A DNA stretch of 64,000 nt from a phage: assembly GCA_033648345.1 (NCBI GenBank), contig GCA_033648345.1_4121.1, one strand, 5' to 3'. The notes beneath the pieces are model-generated. The model did not search any database. It was not told the DNA's origin and was given only the letters and a program-made list of their open reading frames with translations. This document shows positions 9,060 through 60,480 of the stretch, piece by piece. The position numbers and the translations under genes are program-made. Position 1 is the stretch's first letter, and each line of letters starts with the position of its first letter.

Positions 9060-9317
9060 ATGTTTGCATTGCGTAATAAAAATACAAAAGAGATTCTGTG
9101 TATCTCAACAGTATGGGATTGTGCAGGAAGTGAAATGATTCTCGAAGAAGGTTCAGGTGATTGTGTTTATGTTGTTCAGGATCGTCGCGAACTGGAATCA
9201 TTACTTGACGAATTTAATGCTGGTGGAAATCCTAAAAGTACTCAATTCCCTGAGATCAGGAATCCAGCACCACCAGGCTCTTATGAAATTCTACAACTGT
9301 GGGAGATGGATAAGTAA
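9060..9317 (+). CDS. hypothetical protein (85 aa)
   Basis: ORF; contains a Chi octamer at 9219-9226. Confidence 0.55.
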   Translation: MFALRNKNTKEILCISTVWDCAGSEMILEEGSGDCVYVVQDRRELESLLDEFNAGGNPKSTQFPEIRNPAPPGSYEILQLWEMDK

Positions 9318-9697
9318 TGCGTCAAATGCACAAAGTAACCGAGCTAAACAAGCGTCTGATTAAACAATCAATGTTTGAGGATAAAGAGTCTTACTATAAC
9401 TTCAAACGTGCTGTAGAGGCTGCTATCCACATTCAGAAGCTTAAAGATAGTGGATGTATTATTCTCGAAAATGGTTCTGACGTTGTTACTGATGACTTCA
9501 GTGTAGCGTTTGATGTTTCACCTGATGGTTCGCTATCAATGCCACGCTTAGGGACTGGTGACATGACTGTGTGGGTAGGTTTCACTATGGGGAATGTACC
9601 AGGCACGGTGTATGTAGATGATGCTGAGTTGAAAGAAAGCTTCAAAAACTTATCGCATCTTGAACCACAATACGCACATGAAATGAATTTATTTTGA
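9317..9697 (+). CDS. hypothetical protein (126 aa)
   Basis: ORF; start overlaps previous stop. Confidence 0.55.
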   Translation: MRQMHKVTELNKRLIKQSMFEDKESYYNFKRAVEAAIHIQKLKDSGCIILENGSDVVTDDFSVAFDVSPDGSLSMPRLGTGDMTVWVGFTMGNVPGTVYVDDAELKESFKNLSHLEPQYAHEMNLF

Positions 9698-9698
9698 G

Positions 9699-9758
9699 TT
9701 GACAAACTCATTCAGTACTGTATAATGTTTATCAAGGGGATGAACTTCTCATCCCCAC
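9699..9758 (+). promoter_or_regulatory. sigma70-type promoter with 5' stem-loop
   Basis: TTGACA 9699-9704, 16-nt spacer with AGTACTG, TATAAT 9721-9726, then GGGGATGA…TCATCCCC hairpin before SD. Confidence 0.6.
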
Positions 9759-9773
9759 AATCGAGGAATTGTC

Positions 9774-10328
9774 ATGATTACTTTTAAGAAAACTGCTAAC
9801 CACATCCATGAGATCTACATTAACGGTCACAAAGCTGGCCTTCTTCGTTTACTCGCCCATCATCCGAATATTACCGTATCTGATAATGAACCTAAAGATT
9901 GGCGTGTATTTTTCTTTGGAAAGTACAGTGATTTTCAAGTATCAAACCTGAAGAACATTCGTTCAGTATGCACGTTAACTGAAATTAAAGAAAAGTTAAC
10001 CAAAGCATTGAAAACTAATCCAGATAGTGTTCTTCCACCTGATAACTTTGTAGAGAAAGGATATGCCTTAGCTCATTTCAAAGATGGTACTATTCAATCT
10101 ATCAGTACTGAATATGAATATCAATGGACTGAGTACTTCACTTATGGATCGCGTAATACATTGATGGCTTCACGTAGTAAATTGGAAGAAGTACTGACTC
10201 GTATGAATGAACGCGAGCGTCAATTTTATGACAAACCAGAAATGTGGAGTTCAACTTACATTGACCGTATTGACTATGTTATTATGACTCCAATCTTTGA
10301 CACTGCTTACTATGATTCTTTGAAATAA
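9774..10328 (+). CDS. hypothetical protein (184 aa)
   Basis: ORF with GAGGA SD. Confidence 0.65.
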   Translation: MITFKKTANHIHEIYINGHKAGLLRLLAHHPNITVSDNEPKDWRVFFFGKYSDFQVSNLKNIRSVCTLTEIKEKLTKALKTNPDSVLPPDNFVEKGYALAHFKDGTIQSISTEYEYQWTEYFTYGSRNTLMASRSKLEEVLTRMNERERQFYDKPEMWSSTYIDRIDYVIMTPIFDTAYYDSLK

Positions 10329-10339
10329 GGATAACTTAT

Positions 10340-10516
10340 ATGAAACTACGTACTCGTAATCGACTGATGGATGCACTGTACCATGAACAGCTTTCACTGA
10401 ATGAAGTGAAGCGTCAGTTAATGTACACATATCTGTTACCCGCTCGCATTGCAAAACAACGTGCTAAAGAATTGCTGAAAGAAGCAATCGAGTACTGGGA
10501 ATCTGATTCGTACTAA
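10340..10516 (+). CDS. hypothetical small protein (58 aa)
   Basis: ORF below track threshold; AAGGA SD 8 nt upstream. Confidence 0.45.
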   Translation: MKLRTRNRLMDALYHEQLSLNEVKRQLMYTYLLPARIAKQRAKELLKEAIEYWESDSY

Positions 10517-10544
10517 TTGTCACGTTAATTAAGTGAGGCGATAA

Positions 10545-10796
10545 ATGAAAATTTTATTAGTTCTAATACTACTAATTGTTTTACCATTTACGTTAGTATC
10601 CCCTGAACTTGCATGGAATGTGTTTGTGTACTTACTATGTACTATTGTAGTAAATGGTATCTTGTTCTTAGTTCTATTCATAAATGGAATAGGACACGGT
10701 GGAGGATGGACCAGTACTGCTGATATTGTACATAAAACCACTATGTCTTTATTTGTAGTGTGGAATTTATTCTGGACTTGGTTTGTGTTCTTCTAA
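10545..10796 (+). CDS. small membrane protein (83 aa)
   Basis: Hydrophobic ORF with GAGG SD. Confidence 0.55.
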   Translation: MKILLVLILLIVLPFTLVSPELAWNVFVYLLCTIVVNGILFLVLFINGIGHGGGWTSTADIVHKTTMSLFVVWNLFWTWFVFF

Positions 10797-10805
10797 TTAA
10801 AAAAT

Positions 10806-11177
10806 ATGAATATAGATTTGAAAGGTGCAACCCGAACTGTCATACTCATTGGGGAATATGCTATCAAGATTCCAACCTTTAAAAGTTGGAAGCTATTCTT
10901 AACAGGGATGATAGCTAACCTCAATGAACGTTCTTGGATGCAGTACTCCAAGCGTAGTGATAGTGGTATCTGCCCTACGTTGTGGTCATCATGTACTGGA
11001 CTAGTAACTGTACAGAAACGTTGTAAGCCAGTACAACATAGGGGTTTATTTTGGGTGGAGTTGTGTGCTTTAGCATTGGATTCAGAGTTGAGTACTGACT
11101 TCTTCTATTCAGATGCGAAGCCAGAAAACTTTGGGTATCTGGGTGGTAAGTTAGTTAAACTTGATTATGGAGATTAA
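10806..11177 (+). CDS. minimal protein-kinase-like protein (123 aa)
   Basis: Motif order AIK … DAKPENFG … KLDYGD resembles kinase beta3-Lys, catalytic loop and DFG-like; ends just after DYG. Confidence 0.45.
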   Translation: MNIDLKGATRTVILIGEYAIKIPTFKSWKLFLTGMIANLNERSWMQYSKRSDSGICPTLWSSCTGLVTVQKRCKPVQHRGLFWVELCALALDSELSTDFFYSDAKPENFGYLGGKLVKLDYGD

Positions 11178-11178
11178 T

Positions 11179-48524: not shown

Positions 48525-48543
48525 AAATATTATCACAGTACTA

Positions 48544-48572
48544 TTGACATAGTTTGATAGTACTGGCATAAT
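48544..48572 (+). promoter_or_regulatory. sigma70-type promoter (duplicated module, copy 2)
   Basis: Identical to copy at 48249. Confidence 0.6.
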
Positions 48573-48605
48573 AGATTTTATCAAGACAACTAAGAGGAAA
48601 TTAAA

Positions 48606-48950: not shown

Positions 48951-49030
48951 TTAGCTTTACTTTATGCAGATACTTTGATATAGTGTCTGCATAGGGGAAA
49001 GAAATTAAATTAACTTAAGAGGATAGTATA

Positions 49031-49300: not shown

Positions 49301-49351
49301 TCAAAACATCGTTAGCGGTCGATTTAGGCCGCTTATATTGGGGATTATACC

Positions 49352-49624
49352 ATGAACGTTAATCAAGTACTGAATGAGATCGAAAGCATCATTAAACCAA
49401 TGAAACGCATTGATGCTATGTTAACACCGGAAGAATGCCGCCTTTATGAGCGTTACAGCGTCGAACAAGTCCAGGCAATGGCTATGGCTACCCCAGCCGT
49501 TAAACAGCCTGAGAACGCGTTACAGGACGTTACAGGGGATTATATCATCAATCCAGTACTAGGGAAGATGGCGGCAATCACCGAAGATCAACAAGACTAC
49601 TTAAGCCAGTACTTAAAAGGTTAA
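49352..49624 (+). CDS. hypothetical protein (90 aa)
   Basis: ORF, weak SD. Confidence 0.55.
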   Translation: MNVNQVLNEIESIIKPMKRIDAMLTPEECRLYERYSVEQVQAMAMATPAVKQPENALQDVTGDYIINPVLGKMAAITEDQQDYLSQYLKG

Positions 49625-49629
49625 TTAAT

Positions 49630-49839
49630 ATGCTTACTGTACAGGATAAGATCGACATCTTAAAGGTTAATATGTATGTGATTGATGCCGTACCTGGTAA
49701 AGTATTTGCATACGATGACACTACTGTAAGCGATTTCTACTATAGCCAGGCCGTGGGGGATCTTTCTGTACAGTCGGTTATTGAAAACGTAGTTAATGCA
49801 GCGTATGAGCATTTACTTTCAAATAGTACTTGCAATTAG
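49630..49839 (+). CDS. hypothetical protein (69 aa)
   Basis: ORF closely following previous stop. Confidence 0.55.
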   Translation: MLTVQDKIDILKVNMYVIDAVPGKVFAYDDTTVSDFYYSQAVGDLSVQSVIENVVNAAYEHLLSNSTCN

Positions 49840-49908
49840 TTTTTAAACGCGTATAATGTTTTACATGAAGGGGAGAAATGATTCTCCCCACTAATTAAGG
49901 AATATGAA

Positions 49909-50055
49909 ATGAAAGCATCAAAAAAGAGTAATACTAAGAAAGCACGTTCACCTTTCGCTGGGGTATTCCCTTTACGTTTCGTTGATGAAGTGGTTTCCTA
50001 CCCGCCGGGCCTTACTCCTGAGATGGTAGAAAGTTTGCGTAAATCTAAAAAATAG
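49909..50055 (+). CDS. hypothetical basic small protein (48 aa)
   Basis: Below track threshold; promoter + GGGGAGAAATGATTCTCCCC hairpin + AAGGA SD. Confidence 0.45.
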   Translation: MKASKKSNTKKARSPFAGVFPLRFVDEVVSYPPGLTPEMVESLRKSKK

Positions 50056-50136
50056 TACTTGCAATTAGTTTTTAAACGCGTATAATGTTTTACATAGAGG
50101 GGAGAAATGGTTCTCCCCAATAACAGGAGAATCAAA

Positions 50137-50289
50137 ATGAAACAATACAATGCTCGGTTTGATGTTACTATCGGCAACGGCAAAGGTCAATTTTCTTTCA
50201 GTACTCGCCGCAGTTATACAGAAAACTTCCTGCGTAATTGTGCACTGACCGCCGCACAAATTAAACATTACTTCCAGGCTAAAAAATGA
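50137..50289 (+). CDS. hypothetical small protein (50 aa)
   Basis: Promoter + hairpin + AGGAGA SD; track start 50107 is inside the hairpin. Confidence 0.55.
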   Translation: MKQYNARFDVTIGNGKGQFSFSTRRSYTENFLRNCALTAAQIKHYFQAKK

Positions 50290-50375
50290 AATCATTAGCT
50301 TATTACAGTTCAGCGGTGATCGGTGCATTGATCGCGGCATTGTTAGTAACCTATCTATTCTTTATGGTGATTTAA
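50286..50375 (+). CDS. tiny hydrophobic peptide (29 aa)
   Basis: ATGA overlap with previous stop; MKSLAYYSSAVIGALIAALLVTYLFFMVI. Confidence 0.35.
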   Translation: MKSLAYYSSAVIGALIAALLVTYLFFMVI

Positions 50376-50510
50376 ATGAATCCTAACGGTTTAATTTACA
50401 GTACTCCTAAAACGAAAGCAGATAAAGCGAAAGCACGTAAAGCGAAAGTAAAGGAGTACATTAAGCAAGGCATGACGCGAAAGGCGGCAGTACTGAAAGC
50501 TAAAAAATAA
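50376..50510 (+). CDS. Lys-rich small protein (44 aa)
   Basis: ATG immediately after previous stop (TAAATG). Confidence 0.35.
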   Translation: MNPNGLIYSTPKTKADKAKARKAKVKEYIKQGMTRKAAVLKAKK

Positions 50511-50520
50511 ATGAAAAAAG

Positions 50521-50554
50521 TGGTTGACTTCGGTCAGCCATTTTGCTATTATAT
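50521..50554 (+). promoter_or_regulatory. terminator-hairpin/promoter composite (PeSL-like)
   Basis: GGTTGAC-TTCG-GTCAGCC hairpin + TTTTGCTATTATAT. Confidence 0.6.
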
Positions 50555-50555
50555 A

Positions 50556-50606
50556 TTCATTGAGAGATAGCTCACTAGCCCACCGGGTGCATAAGTGTAT
50601 CTATTA
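50556..50606 (+). ncRNA. candidate small RNA/leader (element E) downstream of PeSL
   Basis: TTCATTGAGAGATAGCTCACTAGCCCACCGGGTGCATAAGTGTATCTATTATAT. Confidence 0.3.
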
Positions 50607-50724
50607 TATAAGTATTGAGTACTGAAAACTATTTTTAAAAAGTACTTGCAAACTATCTCAATAAGCGTATAATGTTTTACATCGAAAGGGGAAACGGTTT
50701 CCCCTGGTAATAAGGAAACAAATC

Positions 50725-51066
50725 ATGACTATTGCAATTGCTCAATCTAACTTTGAAAATGAAATCATCGCCCAGGCACTGCGTTTAAATGATGGTCGGG
50801 CCGAAATTAATTACGGTTTCAATTCAGGCGGTTGTGAAAAATATCAGTACTTTGTAACTGCTGATGGCGGTGTCCTGGGCATCAATACCGTTATTGTAAA
50901 CATTCAGAAAATTAATTTCAATGATCCAGACGATAGCCAGTTTTACATTGTAGGCGTAGACGTGAACTATGAGGATGACTCACTAACTGATGATCACACT
51001 GGCGAGCGGTTAGAAAGTGCATACGGTGAAGATGATTATCAGTCCGGTCCAGAAGATTTCGAATAA
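50725..51066 (+). CDS. hypothetical acidic protein (113 aa)
   Basis: Promoter + GGGGAAACGGTTTCCCC hairpin + AAGGAAA SD. Confidence 0.65.
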   Translation: MTIAIAQSNFENEIIAQALRLNDGRAEINYGFNSGGCEKYQYFVTADGGVLGINTVIVNIQKINFNDPDDSQFYIVGVDVNYEDDSLTDDHTGERLESAYGEDDYQSGPEDFE

Positions 51067-51157
51067 TATAAAAAATAGTTTGACAATAGATTATAGTACT
51101 GTATAATTAATTACATCAAGGGGAGAATAGTTCTCCCCAACTAAGAGGAAAAAGAAA

Positions 51158-51340
51158 ATGGCTGAATTAATCGCTCGGAATACAATTGCAGGCGTTGAAG
51201 ATGTAACATTATCATATGATTCAGATAAACAAGTTTACGTCGTTCGTTATGGTCTGATTGGTGTTAACGTTGATTATATTGATGAAGCCTTTGAAAAATA
51301 CTTTGAATTTATTAATATGGCTTATAATGATTATCGTTAA
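51158..51340 (+). CDS. hypothetical protein (60 aa)
   Basis: Promoter TTGACA…TATAAT + hairpin + AGAGGA SD. Confidence 0.6.
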   Translation: MAELIARNTIAGVEDVTLSYDSDKQVYVVRYGLIGVNVDYIDEAFEKYFEFINMAYNDYR

Positions 51341-51430
51341 AAAATAGTTTGACAATAGATTATAGTACTGTATAATAGTTTACATCAAGGGGAGAAAAAC
51401 TTCTCCCCACTAACAGAGAGAGAAAACAAA

Positions 51431-51643
51431 ATGGCTAATATCTGCACTGTACTGAAAAATGCAAAACAAGTTTTATTTTCTGATCACGATCATTTAAACA
51501 AGGATATTACGGGCGTTCGGAATATCAAAGATGTAAAAAGTGTTATGGGTATCTATTGCAATATGAAACGTGTCGGCACGTTCGGCGATAAAGTACTATA
51601 CCAGGCAGGGGATTATAACTTCACATTAACCATCATCAATTAA
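51431..51643 (+). CDS. hypothetical protein (70 aa)
   Basis: Near-duplicate of the promoter upstream of 51158. Confidence 0.6.
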   Translation: MANICTVLKNAKQVLFSDHDHLNKDITGVRNIKDVKSVMGIYCNMKRVGTFGDKVLYQAGDYNFTLTIIN

Positions 51644-51733
51644 AATATATTACCAGTACTATTGACAACGTTTGATAGTACTGTATAATAAGTTTTATAA
51701 ACAGTAGTTAACTTAACCTAAGAGAGAAACAAA

Positions 51734-51877
51734 ATGATCGCACTGGATTCATTCATCGACGCAGTACTGGCAAAAACTGGCGAGGATCTGACCGCAGAAC
51801 AATACGCGATGATCGAGCAATGTCAGCAAAACGGTAAATCGGTGAAAGATACTGTTAAGATTATCCGCAAGATGTAA
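51734..51877 (+). CDS. hypothetical small protein (47 aa)
   Basis: Below track threshold; promoter TTGACA…TATAAT + AGAGAGA SD. Confidence 0.45.
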   Translation: MIALDSFIDAVLAKTGEDLTAEQYAMIEQCQQNGKSVKDTVKIIRKM

Positions 51878-51886
51878 TATTATAGC

Positions 51887-51912
51887 CCACTGGTTAACGC
51901 TGGTGGGCTTTA
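51887..51912 (+). terminator. hairpin terminator containing a Chi octamer
   Basis: AGCCCACTGG-TTAAC-GCTGGTGGGCT hairpin; weak U-tract. Confidence 0.45.
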
Positions 51913-51982
51913 ATCATTTACCCTATACAATGCCAGTACTCAACCGTTTATCTCGTTAGAATGCGTTACAGGACGTTTGACA

Positions 51983-52180
51983 ATGATTAGCATGAAATCA
52001 GTACAAAAACAAATAGAAACATTATCAAAAATTAAACGTAAACAATACTCCTTAGAATATACAATCAATGGTAACTATCATCTAATGAAAGAAAATAATT
52101 TTATAGTCATTGATGAATCATTGCAAATTATTAGTATAGTACTGAAAGCATTAATCAATGACAGAAAAAAATTAAAATAA
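51983..52180 (+). CDS. hypothetical protein (65 aa)
   Basis: ORF; start uncertain (ATG 51983 or 51992). Confidence 0.45.
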   Translation: MISMKSVQKQIETLSKIKRKQYSLEYTINGNYHLMKENNFIVIDESLQIISIVLKALINDRKKLK

Positions 52181-52183
52181 TTG

Positions 52184-52212
52184 TTGACATACAATGCCAG
52201 TACTGGCATAAT
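52184..52212 (+). promoter_or_regulatory. sigma70-type promoter driving element E copy
   Basis: TTGACA 52184-52189, 17-nt spacer with AGTACTG, CATAAT 52207-52212. Confidence 0.55.
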
Positions 52213-52217
52213 ACTTA

Positions 52218-52266
52218 CATCAAGACGAGAACGTCACTAACCCATAGGGTGCACAAATGTAACTAT
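52218..52266 (+). ncRNA. candidate small RNA/leader (element E)
   Basis: CATCAAGACGAGAACGTCACTAACCCATAGGGTGCACAAATGTAACTAT; no ORF. Confidence 0.3.
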
Positions 52267-52508
52267 ATAATATCGATCAATAAATGATCAAAAAAGTACT
52301 GGATCAATTTAGCATAAGGAGTATAATTCTGATCAATTCTTGATCAAAGGCAATATACGCAGTTGAATTTATATAGACAGTACAAAGGCGTTACTATCCG
52401 TGGTAATGCTGGTGGATATGTAGTATCATATGGTTTGAATAAGATTAGCACTAGTAGTATTATTGTAGCATTACAGTACTATAGTATTTTTATAATGAGG
52501 TTAAAATA

Positions 52509-52766
52509 ATGGCTGTTGGATTCGCGAAGGACGGGGCCGAGCAAGACGAGATTAACGCAGTGATTCAGGCCGCTGTAAACCACGCTAGAAAGCAAATTAA
52601 CGCACAAAGAGAATCACTGGTACATTGCCTCGACTGCGGCGATAAAATCCCTGAGAATCGACGCCAGGCCGTTATAGGGTGCATGTATTGTATTACTTGC
52701 CAGGAGGATCATGATAGTACTTTTAAAAGAGATCCGCGTAATTGTTGGCATAGATCTATGAGATAA
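52509..52766 (+). CDS. TraR/DksA-type C4 zinc-finger protein (85 aa)
   Basis: CLDCGDKIPENRRQA…CMYCITC four-cysteine motif. Confidence 0.7.
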   Translation: MAVGFAKDGAEQDEINAVIQAAVNHARKQINAQRESLVHCLDCGDKIPENRRQAVIGCMYCITCQEDHDSTFKRDPRNCWHRSMR

Positions 52767-52830
52767 AAAGTAATTGACAGTACTGAAAGATAGTGTATAA
52801 TGTTTTATATCTTAACTGAGGATTGAAATC

Positions 52831-53187
52831 ATGGGTATTCAACACATCACGCGTACTACTGACAATGGCGAGATCACTGGTTATCAGGTACAGGGCAAAG
52901 TAGCACAATTGCAGTACTGGTTTGTTAAACGTGGAATCATTGCACCGGATCTTGATTATGACCGTGTAGCGTTTATTGATTCTCTTTATGTTGATCCTGA
53001 TAGTCGGGGCAATGGTGAAGGTAACGAATTAATGAATGCCTTTATTGATGCCGCCGATGATTCAGATTGTATCATCTTAGAATGCGATACGGGAGAAGAT
53101 AACGCCTTTAATCTTAAAGAATGGTACGAAGGCTTCGGATTCGAGGTATTGATAGATAGTGAATATCCTATCATGATTTTATCATAG
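52831..53187 (+). CDS. possible GNAT-family acetyltransferase (118 aa)
   Basis: IDSLYVDPDSRGNGEGNELMNAFID resembles acetyl-CoA binding motif A; assignment tentative. Confidence 0.45.
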   Translation: MGIQHITRTTDNGEITGYQVQGKVAQLQYWFVKRGIIAPDLDYDRVAFIDSLYVDPDSRGNGEGNELMNAFIDAADDSDCIILECDTGEDNAFNLKEWYEGFGFEVLIDSEYPIMILS

Positions 53188-53266
53188 TACTTGCATTTAG
53201 TTTTCAGTACTGTTATAGTACTTGCATCAAGGGGAAACATCTTCCCCTACTAAGAGGAAATAAAAA

Positions 53267-53455
53267 ATGGAAAACTTATCAAGTATTTTAGTACAAGATG
53301 ATTTCGGTAATCCTGGAAGTGCTATCATTGTTCGGGGCAATAAAGCAACGTTTGTTATTGCTGGTGGACCCGTACAGCGTAGCATTAAAAATAATGCTGT
53401 TACCATTAATAATGTACGCTATCGCTTAGATAAAGAATTAATTCATAAACTGTAA
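53267..53455 (+). CDS. hypothetical protein (62 aa)
   Basis: Promoter + hairpin + AGAGGA SD. Confidence 0.6.
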   Translation: MENLSSILVQDDFGNPGSAIIVRGNKATFVIAGGPVQRSIKNNAVTINNVRYRLDKELIHKL

Positions 53456-53482
53456 TATTAATTTAATAGAGGATAACAATAA

Positions 53483-53806
53483 ATGTACATTCATACTACT
53501 ATCACAAAGGAAGTCCGTTGCCAGTTCGAAAGTATTCCGGGCGTATGTTTCATCACTGGTACGTTTTCCCCTGGTGATCGTGATAATCCAGTACTGTTAC
53601 AATTACGCCATCCATCATGGGATAAAGCATTTGATCTACCGTTGAATGAATTCGCAACTACTGCTGAAAAGTACATTAAAAATATTCGCGAGAATGATCG
53701 ACTATTCATTAATGCTTTTAGTGATTCCGCGTTAAGCGAGATCCACGGCGTATTGGTTGCAATCATGGAATCAATGCAGAAAACTAAATTCAAACAAGGT
53801 GAATAA
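53483..53806 (+). CDS. hypothetical protein (107 aa)
   Basis: AGAGGA SD. Confidence 0.6.
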   Translation: MYIHTTITKEVRCQFESIPGVCFITGTFSPGDRDNPVLLQLRHPSWDKAFDLPLNEFATTAEKYIKNIRENDRLFINAFSDSALSEIHGVLVAIMESMQKTKFKQGE

Positions 53807-53889
53807 AAACTATTGACAATGCAATCCAGTACTGTATAATAGTTTACATGAAGGGGAGAAATGATTCTCCCCACTAAGAGGAAAGAAAA

Positions 53890-54102
53890 ATGCAAGGTCA
53901 ACTAATCGTTCGTAAATGGTCTGATACTAACGAAAAACCGTGGGATGTACAATACATCGCCCCAAATGGTGAATCCAGATATCAACCAGGTGTAACGCAT
54001 AGTACTGAGCAATTCGCCGCCGCTCATCGCGAACGTCTGTTACAATCAATGCAGCAAGGTTCCGGTGAAAAATTCATTCAGGATCATTGGCTGAAAGATT
54101 AA
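53890..54102 (+). CDS. hypothetical protein (70 aa)
   Basis: Promoter + GGGGAGAAATGATTCTCCCC hairpin + AGAGGA SD. Confidence 0.6.
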   Translation: MQGQLIVRKWSDTNEKPWDVQYIAPNGESRYQPGVTHSTEQFAAAHRERLLQSMQQGSGEKFIQDHWLKD

Positions 54103-54188
54103 AAAGTACTTGCACTGTACTGAATAAAGTGTATAATGTTTTATATCGGAAGGGGAATAGTTCCCCTCCGAACAAAGAGGAAAGTATA

Positions 54189-54362
54189 ATGGTCCAGGTA
54201 GAATTAACAGTACTGAAAGATCTGTTTTATCGGATTGGTACTACTGGCGAATATCCGAAGGGTGATAATGCAAAACTTTACGTATCACTCGACTTATGGC
54301 AACGCGAACAATTAGCAACGGCCTGGCGTAAAGGCAAAGCAGATCGAGAGGTGAAAGCATGA
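54189..54362 (+). CDS. hypothetical small protein (57 aa)
   Basis: Promoter + GGAAGGGGAATAGTTCCCCTCC hairpin + AGAGGA SD; track start 54087 is in the promoter. Confidence 0.55.
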   Translation: MVQVELTVLKDLFYRIGTTGEYPKGDNAKLYVSLDLWQREQLATAWRKGKADREVKA

Positions 54363-54508
54363 AAGAATTCTTATTTGAAGTAGTGTTTCAAGGTGTCGGC
54401 AATAACCAACTGATTCGATCAAGTGGTTATAATGTTAACCAGGCATGGAATAACATTAAACAAATGTACCCGAACGCTATCACATATCGCAACCCGAAAG
54501 AAGTTTAA
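54359..54508 (+). CDS. hypothetical small protein (49 aa)
   Basis: ATGA overlap with previous stop. Confidence 0.4.
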   Translation: MKEFLFEVVFQGVGNNQLIRSSGYNVNQAWNNIKQMYPNAITYRNPKEV

Positions 54509-54522
54509 AAATAATTGAAAAA

Positions 54523-54558
54523 GGGATTGACTCCGGTCAGTCCCTTTGCTATTATATA
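54523..54558 (+). promoter_or_regulatory. terminator-hairpin/promoter composite (PeSL-like)
   Basis: GGGATTGAC-TCCG-GTCAGTCCC hairpin + TTTGCTATTATATA. Confidence 0.6.
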
Positions 54559-54603
54559 CGCATAGAAACAAATTAGCCCACCGGGTGCATAAATGTATCT
54601 ATT
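54559..54603 (+). ncRNA. candidate small RNA/leader (element E) downstream of PeSL
   Basis: …AATTAGCCCACCGGGTGCATAAATGTATCTATTG followed by a Chi octamer at 54608. Confidence 0.3.
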
Positions 54604-54690
54604 GTTTGCTGGTGGCTAGTACTATCAAGTACTGAAAACTATTTTTAAAAAGTACTTGCAAAGTATCACGATAAGCGTATAATGTTTTAC

Positions 54691-54770
54691 ATCAGGACGG
54701 GGAACGAAACAAGTAACCCCGTTAAGTAGTCCAGGAGTAAGACATACGAAAAACTCCCCTGATAAAATAG
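54691..54770 (+). ncRNA. conserved non-coding leader between tandem promoters (element L)
   Basis: Near-identical to 43731-43810. Confidence 0.35.
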
Positions 54771-54832
54771 TTTGACAATAGAAAGTAAACGAGTATAATA
54801 CTTACATCAACCACTGATAAGGAAACATTAAA

Positions 54833-55108
54833 ATGCGGATTCTACTGACAGCTAACGAAATCGAACAAGTACTGACTACTAACCTGGAAGACTGGAAACG
54901 TGAAGCAGATATCCAGGCGGTTCAATGGCTTAACGATAAGTTAACGCCGGATGACTTAAGCAAGATTGTAGATCCTCAATTCTACGAAGATATTCACGAC
55001 ACCGCGTTAAGCGTCGAGGATGTACTTGATAAGCACTACATTGATACTGATTTACATGTTTACGGTCGTAAAAACTTTATCACTATTCACGACATTTACA
55101 ATACTTAA
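54833..55108 (+). CDS. hypothetical protein (91 aa)
   Basis: AAGGAAA SD. Confidence 0.6.
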   Translation: MRILLTANEIEQVLTTNLEDWKREADIQAVQWLNDKLTPDDLSKIVDPQFYEDIHDTALSVEDVLDKHYIDTDLHVYGRKNFITIHDIYNT

Positions 55109-55196
55109 GTATTGACAAAGTATCTTAGTACTGTATAATAGTTTACATCAAGTGAGGGGAAACGGTTCCCCTCCTAACAAAGAGAGAGAAATAAAA

Positions 55197-55379
55197 ATGG
55201 CTAAGTGCACTATCTGCAAGAAAGAAATAGTATTAGTTCCAAGTGCCCGTGAACGTGCCGCTCGGTTTGGTGGCAAAGCGTCAGACTATACAAAAATGTT
55301 TACTGCCCATACAGCTTGCCAGGTAGCAAAACGTTCACAAGAAAGCGTAGAATTAATGCGTAAACTTTCCAAAAAATAA
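55197..55379 (+). CDS. small Cys-containing protein (60 aa)
   Basis: Promoter TTGACA…TATAAT + GAGGGGAAACGGTTCCCCTC hairpin; MAKCTICKK…HTAC. Confidence 0.55.
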   Translation: MAKCTICKKEIVLVPSARERAARFGGKASDYTKMFTAHTACQVAKRSQESVELMRKLSKK

Positions 55380-55465
55380 GTATTGACAAAGTATCTTAGT
55401 ACTGTATAATAGTTTACATCAAGTGAGGGGAAACGGTTCCCCTCCTAACAGAGAGAGAAATAAAA

Positions 55466-55789
55466 ATGGCTATGATCCTTACCCAGAAAGTGGAATTGAA
55501 AATTGTAACCTCCTTTGACATTAAAGTTAATCGGTGGACTGATTCACACGGCAATACTTACCACTCTTGCTACGTGTCTGCGTTAATTGGCGACCGCTGG
55601 GAAGACCTGGGACACGAAACCTTTACATACGGTTACGGTACGCAAGGCGAATACACTGGTTTGGAGATCATTAAAGAAACCGTTATAGGTTTCAACCCGA
55701 AAGAAAAAGTTATTCACCGCATCGAAAAAGAGATTAACAAAGAAATAACAGTTCGCTACTACGATGTAAAACGTAAGAAAGACATGTAA
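55466..55789 (+). CDS. hypothetical protein (107 aa), paralogue of 48606-48950
   Basis: Exact duplicate of the promoter module upstream of 55197. Confidence 0.65.
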   Translation: MAMILTQKVELKIVTSFDIKVNRWTDSHGNTYHSCYVSALIGDRWEDLGHETFTYGYGTQGEYTGLEIIKETVIGFNPKEKVIHRIEKEINKEITVRYYDVKRKKDM

Positions 55790-55884
55790 TAGAATCCATT
55801 TAAAGTACTATTTGACATTGCCCAGATAGTACTTTATAATAGACTCTAACTTGTAGTACTAACTCAACTAATAGGATGTATACC

Positions 55885-56280
55885 ATGATTACTAAATTCT
55901 ACGCTACCCGTGAAGCTGCCCGTATTGTTGCACGCGAGGAAGGAGCAGCATTTAAAGACATGGGAACGACAGCACCGAAAGGTCAACGCTGGGCCGTACA
56001 GTTCAAAGAAATCTCTGATATTGTGAATTCACCTGAGCCAGTACTGACAGCAGCAGAACTAAAACGAGCGGATATGCTGGCGGCAATACTTGACGCACAA
56101 GATGAGTTTATCGCTGATTCTGATATCAAAGTACAGGTAAACCACACCGCATGGACTCACGCGGATCACCTGGCAAACCTTAAGCGTCCAAGTGAACTGA
56201 TTCGCAACCAGAAAGAGATCCGACATGATCGTAAGGGTAATCGTGTAACAGTATACAGTAAACGCCGCCAGGTTATCTAA
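55885..56280 (+). CDS. hypothetical protein (131 aa), paralogue of 42862-43128
   Basis: Promoter TTGACA…TATAAT; AGGATG SD then ATG 55885. Confidence 0.6.
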   Translation: MITKFYATREAARIVAREEGAAFKDMGTTAPKGQRWAVQFKEISDIVNSPEPVLTAAELKRADMLAAILDAQDEFIADSDIKVQVNHTAWTHADHLANLKRPSELIRNQKEIRHDRKGNRVTVYSKRRQVI

Positions 56281-56302
56281 TAACTTGCAGTACTAACAAC
56301 AC

Positions 56303-56328
56303 GGCGGGATCAGTTCCCGCCTTTTTTA
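56303..56328 (+). terminator. rho-independent terminator
   Basis: GGCGGGATCAGTTCCCGCC hairpin + TTTTTT. Confidence 0.7.
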
Positions 56329-56341
56329 TAGGACAAACAAA

Positions 56342-56596
56342 ATGATTAAGGTTCAACTATATAAAGATAACATCTTACGGGTACACTATAAAGCACCGAA
56401 GAGAATCATCACAAAGGCCGTACAGCTTGCTAATGAGTTTATTAATGGTAACCTATTACCGAGGAAGTTAAGCAACGGGAAACTGCGTGTAATCGACGTG
56501 GACACTAACAACAGGATAGTAATCGAGAACACAGGAAAGATAAACCTTTATGAGCATCAACAATACAATAAGAAAATAAAACTAATATCACGTTGA
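56342..56596 (+). CDS. hypothetical protein (84 aa)
   Basis: ORF, weak SD. Confidence 0.5.
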   Translation: MIKVQLYKDNILRVHYKAPKRIITKAVQLANEFINGNLLPRKLSNGKLRVIDVDTNNRIVIENTGKINLYEHQQYNKKIKLISR

Positions 56597-56649
56597 CAGT
56601 ACTCAATTGTTTTAGTATTATGTACACATACCAACACGGGAGAAACAAA

Positions 56650-56868
56650 ATGAAATTATCTAAAATCGAAAAGAAAACTATTGATGAAGCAGTTAAGCAC
56701 GGTTATACCTTTCGTAATGATTCACATTTTACCAATTATCAACAAGGGTATCGTACTATTAAAAAACTTATTGACAAAGGTTTATTAGTTGAAGTCAATA
56801 ACGGCAATGGCATTGAGTATCAACCAACACAGGACGCATTTTATTTTAAGAAATATAATATTATCTAA
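56650..56868 (+). CDS. hypothetical protein (72 aa)
   Basis: Promoter TTGACAGTACTCAA…; GGGAGA SD then ATG 56650. Confidence 0.55.
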   Translation: MKLSKIEKKTIDEAVKHGYTFRNDSHFTNYQQGYRTIKKLIDKGLLVEVNNGNGIEYQPTQDAFYFKKYNII

Positions 56869-56926
56869 TTGACAGTACTCAAATGTTTTAGTACTATATG
56901 TACATACCAACACGGGGGAAAACAAA

Positions 56927-57169
56927 ATGATTACTTTAGAAAAACGTATCAAAGAAACTACATCGCTGGTGGAATTGTTAACAGTACTCAAATGTAAAAC
57001 AACACCATTCAGCACGCCGGACTTTATTAATATGGTTGATGTTAACGGTCGTTATCGCATTGCAGTAGAACATGGAACAGCGAAAGTATTCAGTACTAAA
57101 AACACTAAGGAAGTGATTCACGCGGTTAGTGTGAAAAAAGTGGTTGCCATTGATAGTAAAGTACTGTAA
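56927..57169 (+). CDS. hypothetical protein (80 aa)
   Basis: Near-duplicate of the promoter upstream of 56650. Confidence 0.6.
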   Translation: MITLEKRIKETTSLVELLTVLKCKTTPFSTPDFINMVDVNGRYRIAVEHGTAKVFSTKNTKEVIHAVSVKKVVAIDSKVL

Positions 57170-57200
57170 TATAGTTTCATTAACTCAAGGAGTAAATGCA

Positions 57201-57785
57201 ATGCGTAATTATACTAAATTCATCCGTACACTGTCAGAAATGGAAACCAACAAAGAGATCCTTTCAGCTTGTCGGTTAGCTGGCCTGGAGATCATCGGTG
57301 CTGGTTCTTCCCGTATAGTATTCGCTTTAAATGATCGGTTAGTGATTAAGGTCGCGAATTGTGATGCGGGTGTAGAACAAAATGAAACTGAATGTAAGGT
57401 ATGGAATTTTTTAGACTATGACCGCCCTCAGTTGAAACAGTACTTTGCAAAGGTGCATATGCATTTATGCGATCCTGATAATATGTTTATCGTTATGGAT
57501 CGGTTGAGTACTGCAAGCAAAGGCAGTGTGAAGCACGTTAACGCGTGCAATGAATTAAAGTACAATATTAAACGTAATGCAATCGAACGCCAGCACCGCT
57601 TTGCTGATGCACTACAACACGTTGATGATACATTATCAACACTAACGATAAGAGATATCAGAAAACAGAATATCGGCCAGGATCGTAATGGCCTTATTAA
57701 AGTACTTGATTACGGTTTAACCAGCAATATCTGGAATCAGTACTATAAAAAGCGTGATGTGGCAGCAAGTAAAGTAACACGATAA
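57201..57785 (+). CDS. protein-kinase-like protein (194 aa)
   Basis: AAGGAG SD; GAGSSRIVF (Gly-rich loop), VIKV, IRDIRKQNIG (catalytic-loop-like), KVLDYG (DFG-like) in kinase order. Confidence 0.55.
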   Translation: MRNYTKFIRTLSEMETNKEILSACRLAGLEIIGAGSSRIVFALNDRLVIKVANCDAGVEQNETECKVWNFLDYDRPQLKQYFAKVHMHLCDPDNMFIVMDRLSTASKGSVKHVNACNELKYNIKRNAIERQHRFADALQHVDDTLSTLTIRDIRKQNIGQDRNGLIKVLDYGLTSNIWNQYYKKRDVAASKVTR

Positions 57786-57800
57786 AAAAAGATTAAAAAA

Positions 57801-57836
57801 GGGATTGACTCCGGTCAGTCCCTTTGCTATTATATA
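57801..57836 (+). promoter_or_regulatory. terminator-hairpin/promoter composite (PeSL-like)
   Basis: GGGATTGAC-TCCG-GTCAGTCCC hairpin + TTTGCTATTATATA. Confidence 0.6.
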
Positions 57837-57892
57837 TTCATTGAGAGATAACTCACTGACCCATAGGGTGCGGAAGTGTATCTATTATATAA
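57837..57892 (+). ncRNA. candidate small RNA/leader (element E) downstream of PeSL
   Basis: TTCATTGAGAGATAACTCACTGACCCATAGGGTGCGGAAGTGTATCTATTATAT. Confidence 0.3.
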
Positions 57893-58008
57893 GCATTCAG
57901 TACTGAAAACTATTTTAAAAAAGTACTTGCATTGTACTTAGAATCAAGTATAATGTTTTATATCGAGAGGGGGAAATGGTTCTCCCTGGTACATTAAGGA
58001 ATAAAATC

Positions 58009-58416
58009 ATGACTACTACTAATCAAGCTCGGTCCATCGCCAACGATAAAAATCATGCTGCAATGGTCGCTGGTTACATTGAAGCTATGCAATTCAGTAC
58101 TGTACACAATGAGAACGGCGAATACCTGGAAGATTATGAATTATCAGAGCAAGCCCATCAAGCGGCAGTGATTGCATGTTCACGTTTCCTTGCTGTACAT
58201 GGTGAAGATATGGAAACAGTACAAAAACACCATAATCCTGATTATACTTATAGTCATGCAGGTCATGATCTCTTTCTTACTCGCGAAGGTCACGGCACTG
58301 GTTTTTGGGATCGTGATATCGGTCACTATGATGATATATTCACTAAGTACTGCGAAGAAATCAACGTTTGCGATCCCTATGTAGGCGATGATAATCTAAT
58401 CTATATGGGCGAATAA
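58009..58416 (+). CDS. hypothetical protein (135 aa)
   Basis: Promoter + GGGGGAAATGGTTCTCCC hairpin + AAGGAA SD; track start 57976 is in the hairpin. Confidence 0.6.
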   Translation: MTTTNQARSIANDKNHAAMVAGYIEAMQFSTVHNENGEYLEDYELSEQAHQAAVIACSRFLAVHGEDMETVQKHHNPDYTYSHAGHDLFLTREGHGTGFWDRDIGHYDDIFTKYCEEINVCDPYVGDDNLIYMGE

Positions 58417-58504
58417 AAGTATTTGACAAAGTATATCAGTACTGTATAATAGTTTACATCAAGGGGAGAATAGTTCTCCCCCACCAATAAAAGGAAACAA
58501 AATT

Positions 58505-58777
58505 ATGTCCAGCTACTCCGCTACTATGATCATTAAAGATATGAACGGTAATCCTACTTCTGCTGGTGGATCATTTGGAAACATTAATTTAGATGGTCGG
58601 TTATCCATGCAATCAGCCATCGATGCAGCGAAAGAAGTTTTTAAGAATGAATGTACTGTAAGTAAGCTGGATTATATGGGATTCGCTATCGAAAAAACTA
58701 ATCGTTTTGTGAACTACAAAAATCCACTGATGATCGATACTAACCTGAAAGCAAACGAAGTGGGGTACTTATTATGA
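58505..58777 (+). CDS. hypothetical protein (90 aa)
   Basis: Promoter TTGACA…TATAAT + hairpin + AAGGAA SD. Confidence 0.6.
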   Translation: MSSYSATMIIKDMNGNPTSAGGSFGNINLDGRLSMQSAIDAAKEVFKNECTVSKLDYMGFAIEKTNRFVNYKNPLMIDTNLKANEVGYLL

Positions 58778-58965
58778 CAGTTGAAGAAGTTAAAAAAGTA
58801 CTGGCAGTACTACGCTATCATAATCATTGCAAGGTGAAGAATGATCCTGATTATCTCGATTCATCCCTGGAAGAGGATACACTACAAGCAATAAGCCATA
58901 TGCAAAAAATGCTTAAGCGTATGACCGAAAAGAATAGGCCGGACTATATCGGAAATAAAATTTAA
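58774..58965 (+). CDS. hypothetical protein (63 aa)
   Basis: ATGA overlap with previous stop. Confidence 0.55.
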   Translation: MTVEEVKKVLAVLRYHNHCKVKNDPDYLDSSLEEDTLQAISHMQKMLKRMTEKNRPDYIGNKI

Positions 58966-59052
58966 AAAGTACTTGCATTGTAGTTAGATTAACGTATAAT
59001 GTTTTATATCGAGAGGGGGAAATGGTTTCCCCTCAAGTCCAGGAGATACACC

Positions 59053-59316
59053 ATGAACACTATCGAAATCACTATCAATGCACACGTATACGACAACGTA
59101 GTACTGCAAACTACTATGACCGCTAATGATACCAGTACTTTGCGGAATACTGTTATTAGTGCCGTATGTGCTGCAATCGGTGATGTATCCCTGGAAAATG
59201 CAGAACATATCAACAACGGTTTCACTATGTGCAAGCGTGATAACGCAAAACATATCATCGTGGAAGGTTACGGCGGTGTAGAATTTAATGTTTATATGAA
59301 AAAAGTACTTGCATAA
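59053..59316 (+). CDS. hypothetical protein (87 aa)
   Basis: Promoter + hairpin + AGGAGA SD then ATG 59053. Confidence 0.6.
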   Translation: MNTIEITINAHVYDNVVLQTTMTANDTSTLRNTVISAVCAAIGDVSLENAEHINNGFTMCKRDNAKHIIVEGYGGVEFNVYMKKVLA

Positions 59317-59383
59317 TAACTAAAACAAAGTATAATGTTTTGCATAGGGGGAGATATCCTCCCCCACTAAAAGGAGTAATAAA

Positions 59384-59608
59384 ATGGCTAACTTTGATGA
59401 ACTGATGCGGGAAGTAGCTAACCTGGCAGAAGAGAAGAAATCATTCGATTCTATCTATAACACCGCTCACCGTGATTCAGTACTGGCATGTAACCAGGAT
59501 CAAAAAGATGAACTAATCGCCACCTATCATGAAGCATGGAAGTACTACCGACAATGGGAGAAAGAAGAAAGTGAGTCTACCATTGACGGCCTCAATAATC
59601 TAATCTAA
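59384..59608 (+). CDS. hypothetical protein (74 aa)
   Basis: Promoter + GGGGGAGATATCCTCCCCC hairpin + AAGGAG SD. Confidence 0.6.
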   Translation: MANFDELMREVANLAEEKKSFDSIYNTAHRDSVLACNQDQKDELIATYHEAWKYYRQWEKEESESTIDGLNNLI

Positions 59609-59684
59609 AAGTTTTATTTCAGTACTATTGACATAGCTTGATAGTACTGATGTAATAACTTTACTAACTACAAGGGGAAACATA

Positions 59685-59942
59685 ATGGAACAGTTCACAC
59701 AATATCGGGTAAATCCACAAGCTATGGCCTACGTAGAAGACCATAAAACGTTACCAGTACTGCAACCAGTTAAAGGCCGTATCTATCGTGGCCTTGCCTG
59801 GGATACGGCCCAGGATGGATATAAAACCGTCGCCGTGGGGATGTATTGCGGGAATGGTGAATGGTTTGATCCTAGCAATCCGATTGCACTTGACAGTACT
59901 GAAAAAATGAAATGGGCCGACTACATCGAAGATATTTCATAA
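59685..59942 (+). CDS. hypothetical protein (85 aa)
   Basis: Promoter TTGACA…; AAGGGGA SD. Confidence 0.6.
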   Translation: MEQFTQYRVNPQAMAYVEDHKTLPVLQPVKGRIYRGLAWDTAQDGYKTVAVGMYCGNGEWFDPSNPIALDSTEKMKWADYIEDIS

Positions 59943-60032
59943 AAACTATTTGACAGTACTAACCAGTAATGTATAATGTTTTACATAGAGCGGGGGAATA
60001 GTTCTCCCGCCAATAGTTTGGAGTTAAACATT

Positions 60033-60233
60033 ATGTCTATCGCTATCGCCCTGGTTGAAGTACTGAAAGAAGCTAAAGCCAACCAGATCGACGTAAAGAT
60101 CCAGGAACTACAAAACGGCTTAATCGGCTGTACTTGTACCGCTGGTGGAGCGGCAGACTATCGAGAACACGAATCACTCGAATCACTGGTTCGGTATCTT
60201 ACCATGATCGTTGATGATTGGAGAATCATCTAA
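60033..60233 (+). CDS. hypothetical protein (66 aa)
   Basis: Promoter + GCGGGGGAATAGTTCTCCCGC hairpin + GGAG SD; contains Chi at 60141. Confidence 0.55.
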   Translation: MSIAIALVEVLKEAKANQIDVKIQELQNGLIGCTCTAGGAADYREHESLESLVRYLTMIVDDWRII

Positions 60234-60251
60234 CAAAAAAAGAATAAAAAA

Positions 60252-60288
60252 GGGATTGACTCCGGTCAGTCCCTTTGCTATTATATAC
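60252..60288 (+). promoter_or_regulatory. terminator-hairpin/promoter composite (PeSL-like)
   Basis: GGGATTGAC-TCCG-GTCAGTCCC hairpin + TTTGCTATTATATA. Confidence 0.6.
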
Positions 60289-60332
60289 GCATAGACAAAA
60301 ACTAGCCCACAGGGTGCATAGGTGTATCTAAA
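60289..60332 (+). ncRNA. candidate small RNA/leader (element E) downstream of PeSL
   Basis: CGCATAGACAAAAACTAGCCCACAGGGTGCATAGGTGTATCTAAAAT; Chi at 60364 follows. Confidence 0.3.
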
Positions 60333-60480
60333 ATATATAGTTAATAACGGTGAGTAACTATCTGCTGGTGGAGTGAAAACTATTAATAAAAAAAACTATT
60401 GACAAAGTATATCAGTACTGCAATAATGTATCTCGTAGGGCGGCAATGGTGCGACGGCCCACAAAGTTAGGAGATTCAAA

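Follow-up and report, generated by a model that had tools for sequence, protein, structure and literature searches.

Host Chi octamers form an oriented array in the direct terminal repeat of an Asteriusvirus jumbo phage

The 64,000-nt window analyzed here, i.e. the whole stretch of DNA under study (contig GCA_033648345.1_4121.1, assembly GCA_033648345.1), belongs to a jumbo myovirus of Escherichia that is placed in Asteriusvirus (PBECO4/121Q group), with ~95-96% identity to its nearest records, BF17, vB_Ec-M-J and fEgEco12. E. coli served to isolate every one of the closest relatives and is presumably also the host of the isolate represented by the window, in agreement with the enterobacterial host proposed in a previous sequence-only reading. 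The window starts in the right-hand end of the unique part of the genome, runs through a single, collapsed copy of a ~21.4-kb direct terminal repeat (DTR; 40317..61734, plus strand) and closes in the left-hand end of the unique part. The repeat, which was delimited by end-to-end homology, is at the same time the early-gene block: it contains ~55 small plus-strand open reading frames (ORFs) and ~20 sigma70-like promoters. In vB_Ec-M-J, the first 21,525 bp are annotated as direct terminal repeats; we confirmed that both ends of this record are identical and that the block aligns with 40317-~61734 of the window. For fEgEco12, PhageTerm delimits a DTR of 20,993 bp that restriction mapping bears out (PMC13070987), and the termini of this repeat match both boundaries in the window (AGTAGGCAGAGG... 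at 40317; ...GGGTAACCT at 61734, immediately preceding TAGCGAC). The DTR termini of the window isolate are thus placed by homology to fEgEco12 and vB_Ec-M-J rather than by measurement. Within this repeat, the Chi octamer of the host, GCTGGTGG, is strongly clustered, and the present work concerns the specificity, the layout and the possible function of this cluster.

An exact search returned 13 copies of GCTGGTGG in the window, 11 on the plus and two on the minus strand. Twelve of them fall within 40317-61734, and the enrichment is limited to 40893-60371. The leftmost copies form a non-coding palindrome, CCACCAGC-TTGT-GCTGGTGG (40893..40912), 577 bp from the left end of the DTR, that displays Chi on both strands: the minus-strand copy at 40893 is the first active site that RecBCD entering the left end would meet, and its plus-strand partner lies at 40905. 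The second minus-strand copy (47343..47350; DTR position 7027) is intergenic and 7.0 kb from the left end, with an intergenic plus-strand copy nearby at 47405..47412. All further copies are on the plus strand. The one at 51899..51906 is intergenic and constitutes the 3′ arm of a terminator-like hairpin (fold z = -3.6), and another intergenic copy (54608..54615) precedes an early promoter by ~45 bp. Small ORFs harbor the copies at 52408..52415 (GCT-GGT-GGA, i.e. Ala-Gly-Gly; gone in vB_Ec-M-J, where the sequence is GCTGATGG, and in 121Q) and 53360..53367 (same frame), as well as that at 56965..56972 (ORF 56927-57166), which is read in a Leu-Val frame. The Ala-Gly-Gly frame recurs at 58562..58569 and at 60141..60148, the latter copy being gone in 121Q. 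Finally, the intergenic copy at 60364..60371, 1.36 kb from the right end of the DTR, would be the first active Chi for RecBCD arriving from the right. The only copy outside the repeat (9219..9226, plus strand) is an in-frame GCT-GGT-GGA within the ORF 9060-9317; it is coding-strand background and lies outside the array.

These positions refine the sequence-only reading. All coordinates it listed are correct, while the copy at 56965 had been overlooked, and the enrichment, for which it had given a span of 9219-60371, is confined to 40893-60371, with 9219 as an isolated Ala-Gly-Gly copy. Its description of inverted Chi pairs as hairpins applies to one pair: 40893/40905 is a perfect palindrome with 8-bp arms and a 4-nt loop (hairpin z = -4.2), whereas the copies at 47343 and 47405 are separated by 54 nt and fold no better than shuffled sequences (z = -1.3). 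We also considered a longer repeat unit, a dispersed repeat or a promoter/terminator module that would carry Chi along. The flanks of the copies are mutually unrelated, which argues against one longer repeat; they share merely a weak preference for T at -1 and A at +1, partly due to GGA codons, and hairpins overlap two Chi copies and none of the others. These candidates were therefore dismissed.

The claimed enrichment itself held up. In dinucleotide-preserving shuffles of the window (GC content ~0.36), GCTGGTGG occurred 0.72 times on average and four times at most, and none of 100 shuffles reached 13 copies. Chi density in the DTR amounts to 0.56/kb in DNA of 38% GC, and for the 21.4-kb sub-region with 12 copies, Markov models of order 1-3 predict 0.17-0.47 occurrences on the plus and 0.04-0.12 on the minus strand. 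Only the exact word is enriched: the DTR holds 12 Chi as compared to 6 occurrences of all 24 one-mismatch neighbours summed, and each of the ten GCTGGTG heptamers on its plus strand is followed by G. Likewise, on the early-gene strand of the DTR, Chi ranks first among the 168 permutations of its letters, with ten copies against three for the next best and a mean of 0.34.

For comparison of the repeat with the unique region, the full 378,573-bp genome of vB_Ec-M-J was assembled and used as a whole-genome proxy for the window isolate (~95-97% identity to the window over segments of the DTR region). Each 21.5-kb DTR copy of this phage carries 11 Chi (nine plus, two minus; 0.51/kb), with 0.1-0.4 expected from Markov models of order 0-4. 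Its 335.5-kb unique region contains 23 (14 plus, nine minus; 0.069/kb), corresponding to a 7.5-fold higher density in the DTR. Markov models of order 3-5 predict ~6-8 plus-strand and 4.5-6.3 minus-strand copies in the unique region, where Chi (23) is inside the range of its one-mismatch neighbours (mean ~11, maximum 28). Hence, the Chi-rich part is the terminal repeat, and the genome overall is not notably rich in Chi. The over-representation for which the sequence-only reading had suggested whole-genome counts is thus found in the DTR and not in the unique part; as a test of refutation, such a count would have been misleading, the 335 kb of unique sequence lying within the neighbour range.

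Next, Chi was viewed in its coding context, using coding calls for the DTR from the fEgEco12 annotation. Seven of the 12 copies in the DTR are non-coding, though 68% of the repeat is coding; the coding ones comprise four in a GCT-GGT-GGA (Ala-Gly-Gly) and one in a Leu-Val frame. The pattern typical of chromosomes, in which Chi resides mostly in ORFs and in the CTG-GTG frame, is therefore not what we found. All four Ala-Gly-Gly tripeptides encoded by DTR genes are spelled GCTGGTGGA, as against 12.5% expected from DTR codon usage. In the unique region of vB_Ec-M-J, GCT-GGT makes up 40% of Ala-Gly pairs and 70% when another Gly is next (p = 0.005-0.02). This difference hints at a mild, genome-wide preference for Chi on the coding strand, or else at a codon-context effect. 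As the GCT-GGT pair is common, the copies in the unique region, including that at 9219, are mostly ordinary Ala-Gly-Gly, with at most a mild extra preference. The GC content of the DTR is 0.385 as compared to 0.354. Taken together, Markov models, one-mismatch neighbours, permutations and the coding and frame analysis led us to reject an artefact of codon usage or composition.

The octamers are conserved beyond what their surroundings would predict. Across four Asteriusvirus relatives (vB_Ec-M-J, fEgEco12, 121Q and CMSTMSU), 43 of 48 octamers are intact, whereas the divergence of the local flanks would predict 31.7 (Poisson-binomial P = 3e-5). In 121Q, three Chi sites are lost and one is gained elsewhere. 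Comparable arrays exist in more distant phages. We compared Asteriusvirus with fENko-Kae01, Muenster, XbC2 and Hallingskeid (EJP2, RaK2, GAP32 and Eneladusvirus lay outside this set), counting as plus the copies co-oriented with the early genes and as minus those opposite to them. Klebsiella phage fENko-Kae01 has 12 plus and two minus copies in its PhageTerm-defined DTR (1-19736) and two in the next 30 kb; Klebsiella phage Muenster (Alcyoneusvirus) has seven plus and one minus in its repeat (1-20030) and none in the next 25 kb, which are of 27% GC; and 'Xanthomonas' phage XbC2 (Mimasvirus; OP292654.1, 1-17500) has seven plus and two minus in a 17.5-kb early block, none in the next 8.5 kb and one in 23 kb at the other end of the record. 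In the ~22.6-kb early block of Erwinia phage Hallingskeid, 11 copies are co-oriented and two opposite, while the 17.4 kb that follow contain four copies, each within an RCC1-like gene. Thus, each of the five lineages has 7-12 co-oriented Chi plus one or two opposite copies, the latter mostly toward the left end, and in each of them Chi ranks first of 168 composition-matched permutations (7-12 copies against 1-3 for the next best).

This recurrence is not accompanied by extended sequence similarity, as the DTRs of the window and fENko-Kae01 align at dispersed promoter-like repeats only. The left-end palindrome nevertheless has a counterpart in fENko-Kae01, CCACCAGC-TTAA-GCTGGTGG at 484/496, in which the octamers are kept and the loop and flanks differ. 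A scan of IMG/VR for the left-end palindrome CCACCAGCTTNNGCTGGTGG gave 10 loci, nine of them on contigs of 1.9-61 kb. A minus-strand Chi is located 6.5-7.0 kb from the left end in three genera (7027 in the window DTR, 7013 in fENko-Kae01 and 6454 in Muenster), and its position appears to be conserved without sequence conservation between Asteriusvirus and fENko-Kae01, the two genomes compared by alignment. The terminator-like hairpin at 51883-51908, whose 3′ arm is Chi, shares the 5′ context ACTGGTTAAC with an otherwise unalignable region of fENko-Kae01 (~19340-19365). XbC2 is recorded as a phage of Xanthomonas vesicatoria, yet bears an oriented array of the enterobacterial octamer; either the RecBCD of Xanthomonas reads the same word or the evolutionary host of XbC2 is enterobacterial. 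Since it carries this array despite its Xanthomonas label, XbC2 cannot serve as a host-switch control. As judged from the sequences, there is strong support for selection on the host's Chi octamer: the exact word is what is enriched, its copies are mostly non-coding, and it is conserved and recurs in five lineages.

The array is also polar. The window DTR has ten plus-strand and two minus-strand Chi, and pooling over four genera yields 36 versus seven (binomial p = 9e-6). Minus-strand copies lie nearer to the left end, with a mean relative position of 0.25 as compared to 0.62 for plus-strand copies (Mann-Whitney p = 0.0016); the seven individual values are 0.01, 0.02, 0.03, 0.32, 0.33, 0.36 and 0.70. 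Three lineages have a minus-strand copy 0.2-0.6 kb from the left terminus, which in Asteriusvirus and fENko-Kae01 is within the bidirectional palindrome. RecBCD that comes in from the right end is activated by GCTGGTGG on the top strand (PMC12315714). Ten active Chi are accordingly available to it in the right repeat of the virion DNA, the first of them 1.36 kb in, and the left repeat has active Chi at 0.58 and 7.0 kb. This polarity is the layout that would be expected if each end were guarded by Chi in its own active orientation. Both the confinement of Chi to the direct terminal repeat and the polar strand layout are absent from the sequence-only reading, and together with enrichment, exact-octamer specificity and recurrence between lineages they are established here.

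What might such an array do? RecBCD at Chi switches from degradation to RecA loading. We propose, with a probability of roughly 60%, that the Chi-armed terminal repeat causes RecBCD to be stopped within redundant DNA and channels the ends of the genome into RecA-mediated recombination between the repeats. RecBCD would load on a free end of the genome and degrade it until Chi is recognized. Coming from the right end, it would unwind leftward past ten correctly oriented Chi, the first 1.4 kb in; from the left end, it would meet bottom-strand Chi at 0.6 kb and 7 kb. Recognition per encounter is ~0.3-0.4, such that ten sites in series would amount to a cumulative probability of >95% and two to ~55%. 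At Chi, the nuclease would be attenuated and RecA loaded on the 3′ tail ending there. No unique information would be lost, because all Chi of the array sit in redundant DNA. The tail would find homology in the opposite terminal repeat or in the repeat of a sister genome, and its invasion there would yield a head-to-tail junction, and thereby a circle or concatemer from which replication and packaging could proceed. RecBCD as the reader, and end protection plus repeat-repeat recombination as the outcome, are what we infer from the layout. The sequence-only reading had interpreted Chi enrichment as a possible anti-RecBCD strategy. Selection for the octamer stands, and interaction with RecBCD is the most economical way to read it; attenuated degradation, though, probably covers no more than half of the function, the other half likely being repeat-repeat recombination, by analogy to what has been proposed for P1.

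Several points weigh against this proposal. The 5:1 strand asymmetry leaves only one or two active sites at the left end. The link of these phages to RecBCD is a putative one, drawn from sequence, and the statistics on site conservation make no correction for the common descent of the Asteriusvirus genomes. Besides, the DTR coincides exactly with the block of early genes transcribed by the host RNA polymerase in every lineage examined, for which reason 'terminal' is inseparable from 'early-transcribed and co-oriented with genes'. The phage family further encodes recombination proteins of its own, annotated as UvsX/UvsY, gp46/47-like and endonuclease VII-like; in vB_Ec-M-J, the annotation lists a UvsX-like recombinase, a UvsY mediator, a SbcCD-like nuclease, endonuclease VII and a DprA-like protein. 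In lambdoid phages, by comparison, high Chi density goes with the absence of a Rec module (PMC12315714). Lastly, a RecBCD inhibitor could be among the early DTR genes, almost all of which are of unknown function: a PHROGs comparison of the 20 largest DTR ORFs returned no RecBCD inhibitor or end protector, a result that is uninformative given that nearly all of them are of unknown function. Masking of Chi by base modification is argued against by the DNA of fEgEco12, which is cut normally by restriction enzymes (PMC13070987) and is therefore not heavily modified.

The same enzyme might instead read the array at a later moment, on ends that arise during replication or from cleavage by terminase, with Chi serving recombination-dependent replication or the protection of concatemer ends as in lambda and LLS. 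There, Chi acts on RecBCD entering at the cos end that terminase leaves exposed (PMC12315714), the one-directional bias of 36:7 resembles LLS, in which only one end is exposed, and the phage possesses a T4-like set of recombination and replication genes. We regard late action as rather unlikely, however, since the concatemer junctions of a DTR phage hold the repeat internally, the conserved opposite Chi 0.2-0.6 kb from the left terminus in three lineages best fits the free left end of a mature genome, and host RecBCD may be inhibited, or the DNA-metabolism machinery dismantled, by late infection. That the main benefit consists in evading immunity is less probable still. By this account, an array read by RecBCD would leave fewer fragments for the acquisition of spacers by clustered regularly interspaced short palindromic repeats (CRISPR) systems and, being a DNA signal rather than an inhibitory protein, would avoid triggering guards of RecBCD such as retron Ec48. 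Levy et al. reportedly found in 2015 that Chi sites bound spacer acquisition, and Millman et al. are said to have described in 2020 that retron Ec48 senses RecBCD inhibition. All sequence evidence for an array read by RecBCD would fit, as would the finding that neither the 20 largest DTR ORFs nor the annotations of relatives include a recognizable protein of the Gam, gp5.9 or gp2 type, although with most early genes uncharacterized, absence of an inhibitor is not established. Yet immunity evasion would be an added benefit rather than an alternative mechanism, and it explains the repeat-only location and the polarity no better than end protection plus recombination does.

Readings that dispense with RecBCD fare worse. 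The octamer could be a site for a phage-encoded or another host factor acting in early transcription, packaging or at the termini, its identity with Chi being coincidental. The DTR is indeed dense in repeated signals (~20 promoters and 39 copies of the palindrome CAGTACTG), some Chi overlap terminator-like hairpins, the palindromic pair at the left terminus could be a protein site, and there is the weak T(-1)/A(+1) flank preference. But a phage-specific 8-mer would equal host Chi by chance about once in 33,000 cases, and the same octamer recurs in five lineages with differing promoters and DTR sequences, at variable distances to promoters and terminators, also within ORFs by synonymous spelling, and without a longer shared motif. 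We thus consider this reading highly improbable. A by-product of composition, codon usage or a recent gain of host-like DNA, with no selection on Chi, is effectively refuted. Such an origin could draw on the unique region, whose copies are mostly coding-strand GCT-GGT-GGN with GCT-GGT as the commonest Ala-Gly spelling, as well as on the slightly higher GC content of the DTR and on some small DTR genes that are common to other coliphage genera. In the repeat, however, Markov and shuffle expectations are 0.1-0.7, neighbours and permutations are not enriched, and most copies are non-coding. The GC content of E. coli is roughly 0.51, far from the 0.385 of the DTR. Moreover, the CTG-GTG frame typical of E. 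coli is used by one of 12 copies, as compared to 68% of the copies in E. coli ORFs (bioRxiv 10.1101/2021.07.08.451572).

Oriented clusters of host Chi at phage termini are already known, and the nearest precedents come from the Smith laboratory. P1 and its relatives P7, D6 and NGUA22 have ~50 Chi, mostly in or near the terminal redundancy next to pac, and for P1 these have been proposed to let RecBCD and RecA recombine the terminal repeats and so circularize the injected DNA (bioRxiv 10.1101/2021.07.08.451572; PMC12315714). The window phage resembles P1 in that host Chi is over-represented, clustered at the terminal repeats of packaged DNA and biased in orientation. P1, however, is a temperate headful packager with a variable, circularly permuted redundancy of 5-10 kb and Cre-lox as a second route to circularization, whereas the window phage, a myovirus of ~350 kb, is virulent and has a DTR that is fixed and exact (~21 kb), an array that is bipolar and within the repeat, and T4-like UvsX/UvsY. 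RecBCD dependence, too, was shown genetically for P1, while for the window phage it is a proposal from sequence. LLS and 62 further lambdoids lacking a Rec module possess 8-25 Chi in the proposed active orientation (PMC12315714); those of LLS cluster near the right end with a ~7:1 excess of the active orientation, and LLS grows better with RecBCD (PMC12315714; bioRxiv 10.1101/2021.07.08.451572). Over-representation, terminal clustering and orientation bias are again shared, but LLS-type phages are ~30-58 kb cos phages with no recombinase of their own, unlike the Asteriusvirus relatives with their UvsX, UvsY, SbcCD-like and endonuclease VII-like genes. Given these annotated recombination genes, and not being lambdoid, the window phage is not a member of the LLS class.

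On the E. coli chromosome, Chi occurs at ~0.22/kb, mostly in ORFs and in the CTG-GTG frame (68%; bioRxiv 10.1101/2021.07.08.451572). The DTR has the same octamer and a strand bias that gives the active orientation to RecBCD at a break, and differs in its density of 0.56/kb, its mostly non-coding placement and its rare use of the CTG-GTG frame (1/12). Comparison with T5 concerns the repeat rather than the array: T5 likewise has a long exact DTR (10.2 kb) that holds the earliest host-takeover (first-step-transfer, pre-early) genes. Its repeat (NC_005859) contains two Chi, at 8127 and 8689, both on the plus strand and both coding (0.2/kb; 0.12 copies expected), and lacks a Chi array and a bipolar layout. 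As these two coding copies are a weak signal that nevertheless exceeds expectation, T5 was dropped as a clean negative control for long-DTR coliphages. Other phages answer the problem of exposed ends in a RecBCD+ cell with proteins, namely the T4 gp2 end protector, lambda Gam, T7 gp5.9 and P22 Abc2. These block or inhibit the enzyme, while the Chi sites of an array act in cis, as a DNA signal that would redirect RecBCD and needs no gene expression. Proteins of the T4 gp2, Gam, gp5.9 or Abc2 type were not recognizable among the DTR ORFs tested, i.e. the 20 largest. Our literature search for GCTGGTGG in connection with jumbo phages or direct terminal repeats yielded nothing relevant. The genome paper on fEgEco12 (PMC13070987) does not contain the term 'RecBCD', 'chi' is matched there only within words of other meaning (e.g. 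'chicken'), and the repeats are treated only generically. Thus, as far as the literature is searchable, P1 and LLS are the known precedents and the jumbo-phage case is without report.

The surroundings of the array have features of their own. A sigma70-type early promoter module (AAAAAGTACTTGCA...N...CGTATAATGTTTTACATC) is present in ~20 copies almost exclusive to the DTR (e.g. 54650-54700 and 60395-60440), GTACTTGC occurs 20 times in the DTR and nowhere else in the window, and each of the small early genes seems to have its own promoter and terminator. The palindrome CAGTACTG is found 63 times in the window as compared to 0.97 expected, including the 39 copies in the DTR; it is dense at 34925-46926 and 50488-61453, often appears as TCAGTACTGA, and has many copies in the gene-poor stretch just upstream of the DTR. 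It may be an operator, a UP-like element or a site for a protein. Close to its left terminus, fENko-Kae01 likewise retains the related AGTACT core, and short blocks at DTR positions ~167-237 are shared with this phage as well. The left boundary of the DTR lies within ~4 kb devoid of ORFs of >=80 amino acids (37413-41341), where GC skew changes sign, and GC content over 36001-40000 is 0.326; packaging or termini signals could reside in 37413-41341. Immediately upstream of the DTR, the minus strand carries a tandem array of ~15 paralogous genes of ~360-450 amino acids (15869-34882), which the annotations of relatives name RCC1-like 'regulator of chromosome condensation' proteins. The same synteny exists in XbC2 and Hallingskeid, and RCC1-like genes carry coding-strand Chi in vB_Ec-M-J and Hallingskeid. 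Just past the right boundary (62318-63814), gene style changes abruptly to abutting or overlapping ORFs of 65-85 amino acids that lack promoters of their own; relatives annotate dozens of such ~70-amino-acid, paralog-like genes. At the nucleotide level, a number of small early genes are 80-90% identical to unrelated coliphages of ~135-155 kb (records including Phapecoctavirus and Justusliebigvirus) and to Campylobacter-labelled phage records, whose labels may be mis-assignments. These genes map to DTR positions ~2130-4500, 8386-11320, 14829-15113 and 18455-18645 (window ~42450-44800, 48700-51640, 55145-55430 and 58770-58960), and their similarity indicates horizontal exchange of early 'moron-like' genes.

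With regard to the biology of these phages, published genome papers only speculate that the repeats circularize DNA (PMC13070987). An oriented Chi array in the repeat offers a concrete, testable mechanism by which a giant linear genome could withstand RecBCD during the first minutes after infection, and would extend the concept of phages that exploit rather than inhibit RecBCD from temperate P1 and lambdoids to virulent jumbo phages that have their own recombinases and are candidates for therapy. The precedents of P1 and LLS limit the surprise, while conservation in five lineages, the bipolar design and the coexisting phage recombinase sharpen the hypothesis. Since the Chi-dense block equals the DTR, it can moreover be used as a genomic marker for physical termini in collapsed or permuted assemblies. 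Pseudomonas Chi is GCTGGCGC, unlike GCTGGTGG; if the proposal is true, the Chi of non-model hosts could be read from whichever oriented octamer dominates the DTRs of related phages. The host recBCD/recA genotype could also affect the efficacy of these phages in therapy. Extended to the whole RaK2/121Q-like clade, at what we would put somewhat short of even odds, the ~20-kb repeat may be a sacrificial, Chi-armed buffer that acts without gene expression and turns the chief host nuclease against linear DNA into a means of genome circularization or concatemer formation, with bottom-strand Chi guarding the left end and the top-strand array the right. Such a buffer would redirect RecBCD instead of inhibiting it and would for this reason go unseen by sensors of RecBCD inhibition, and it would coexist with UvsX, against the rule of 'Chi instead of a Rec module'.

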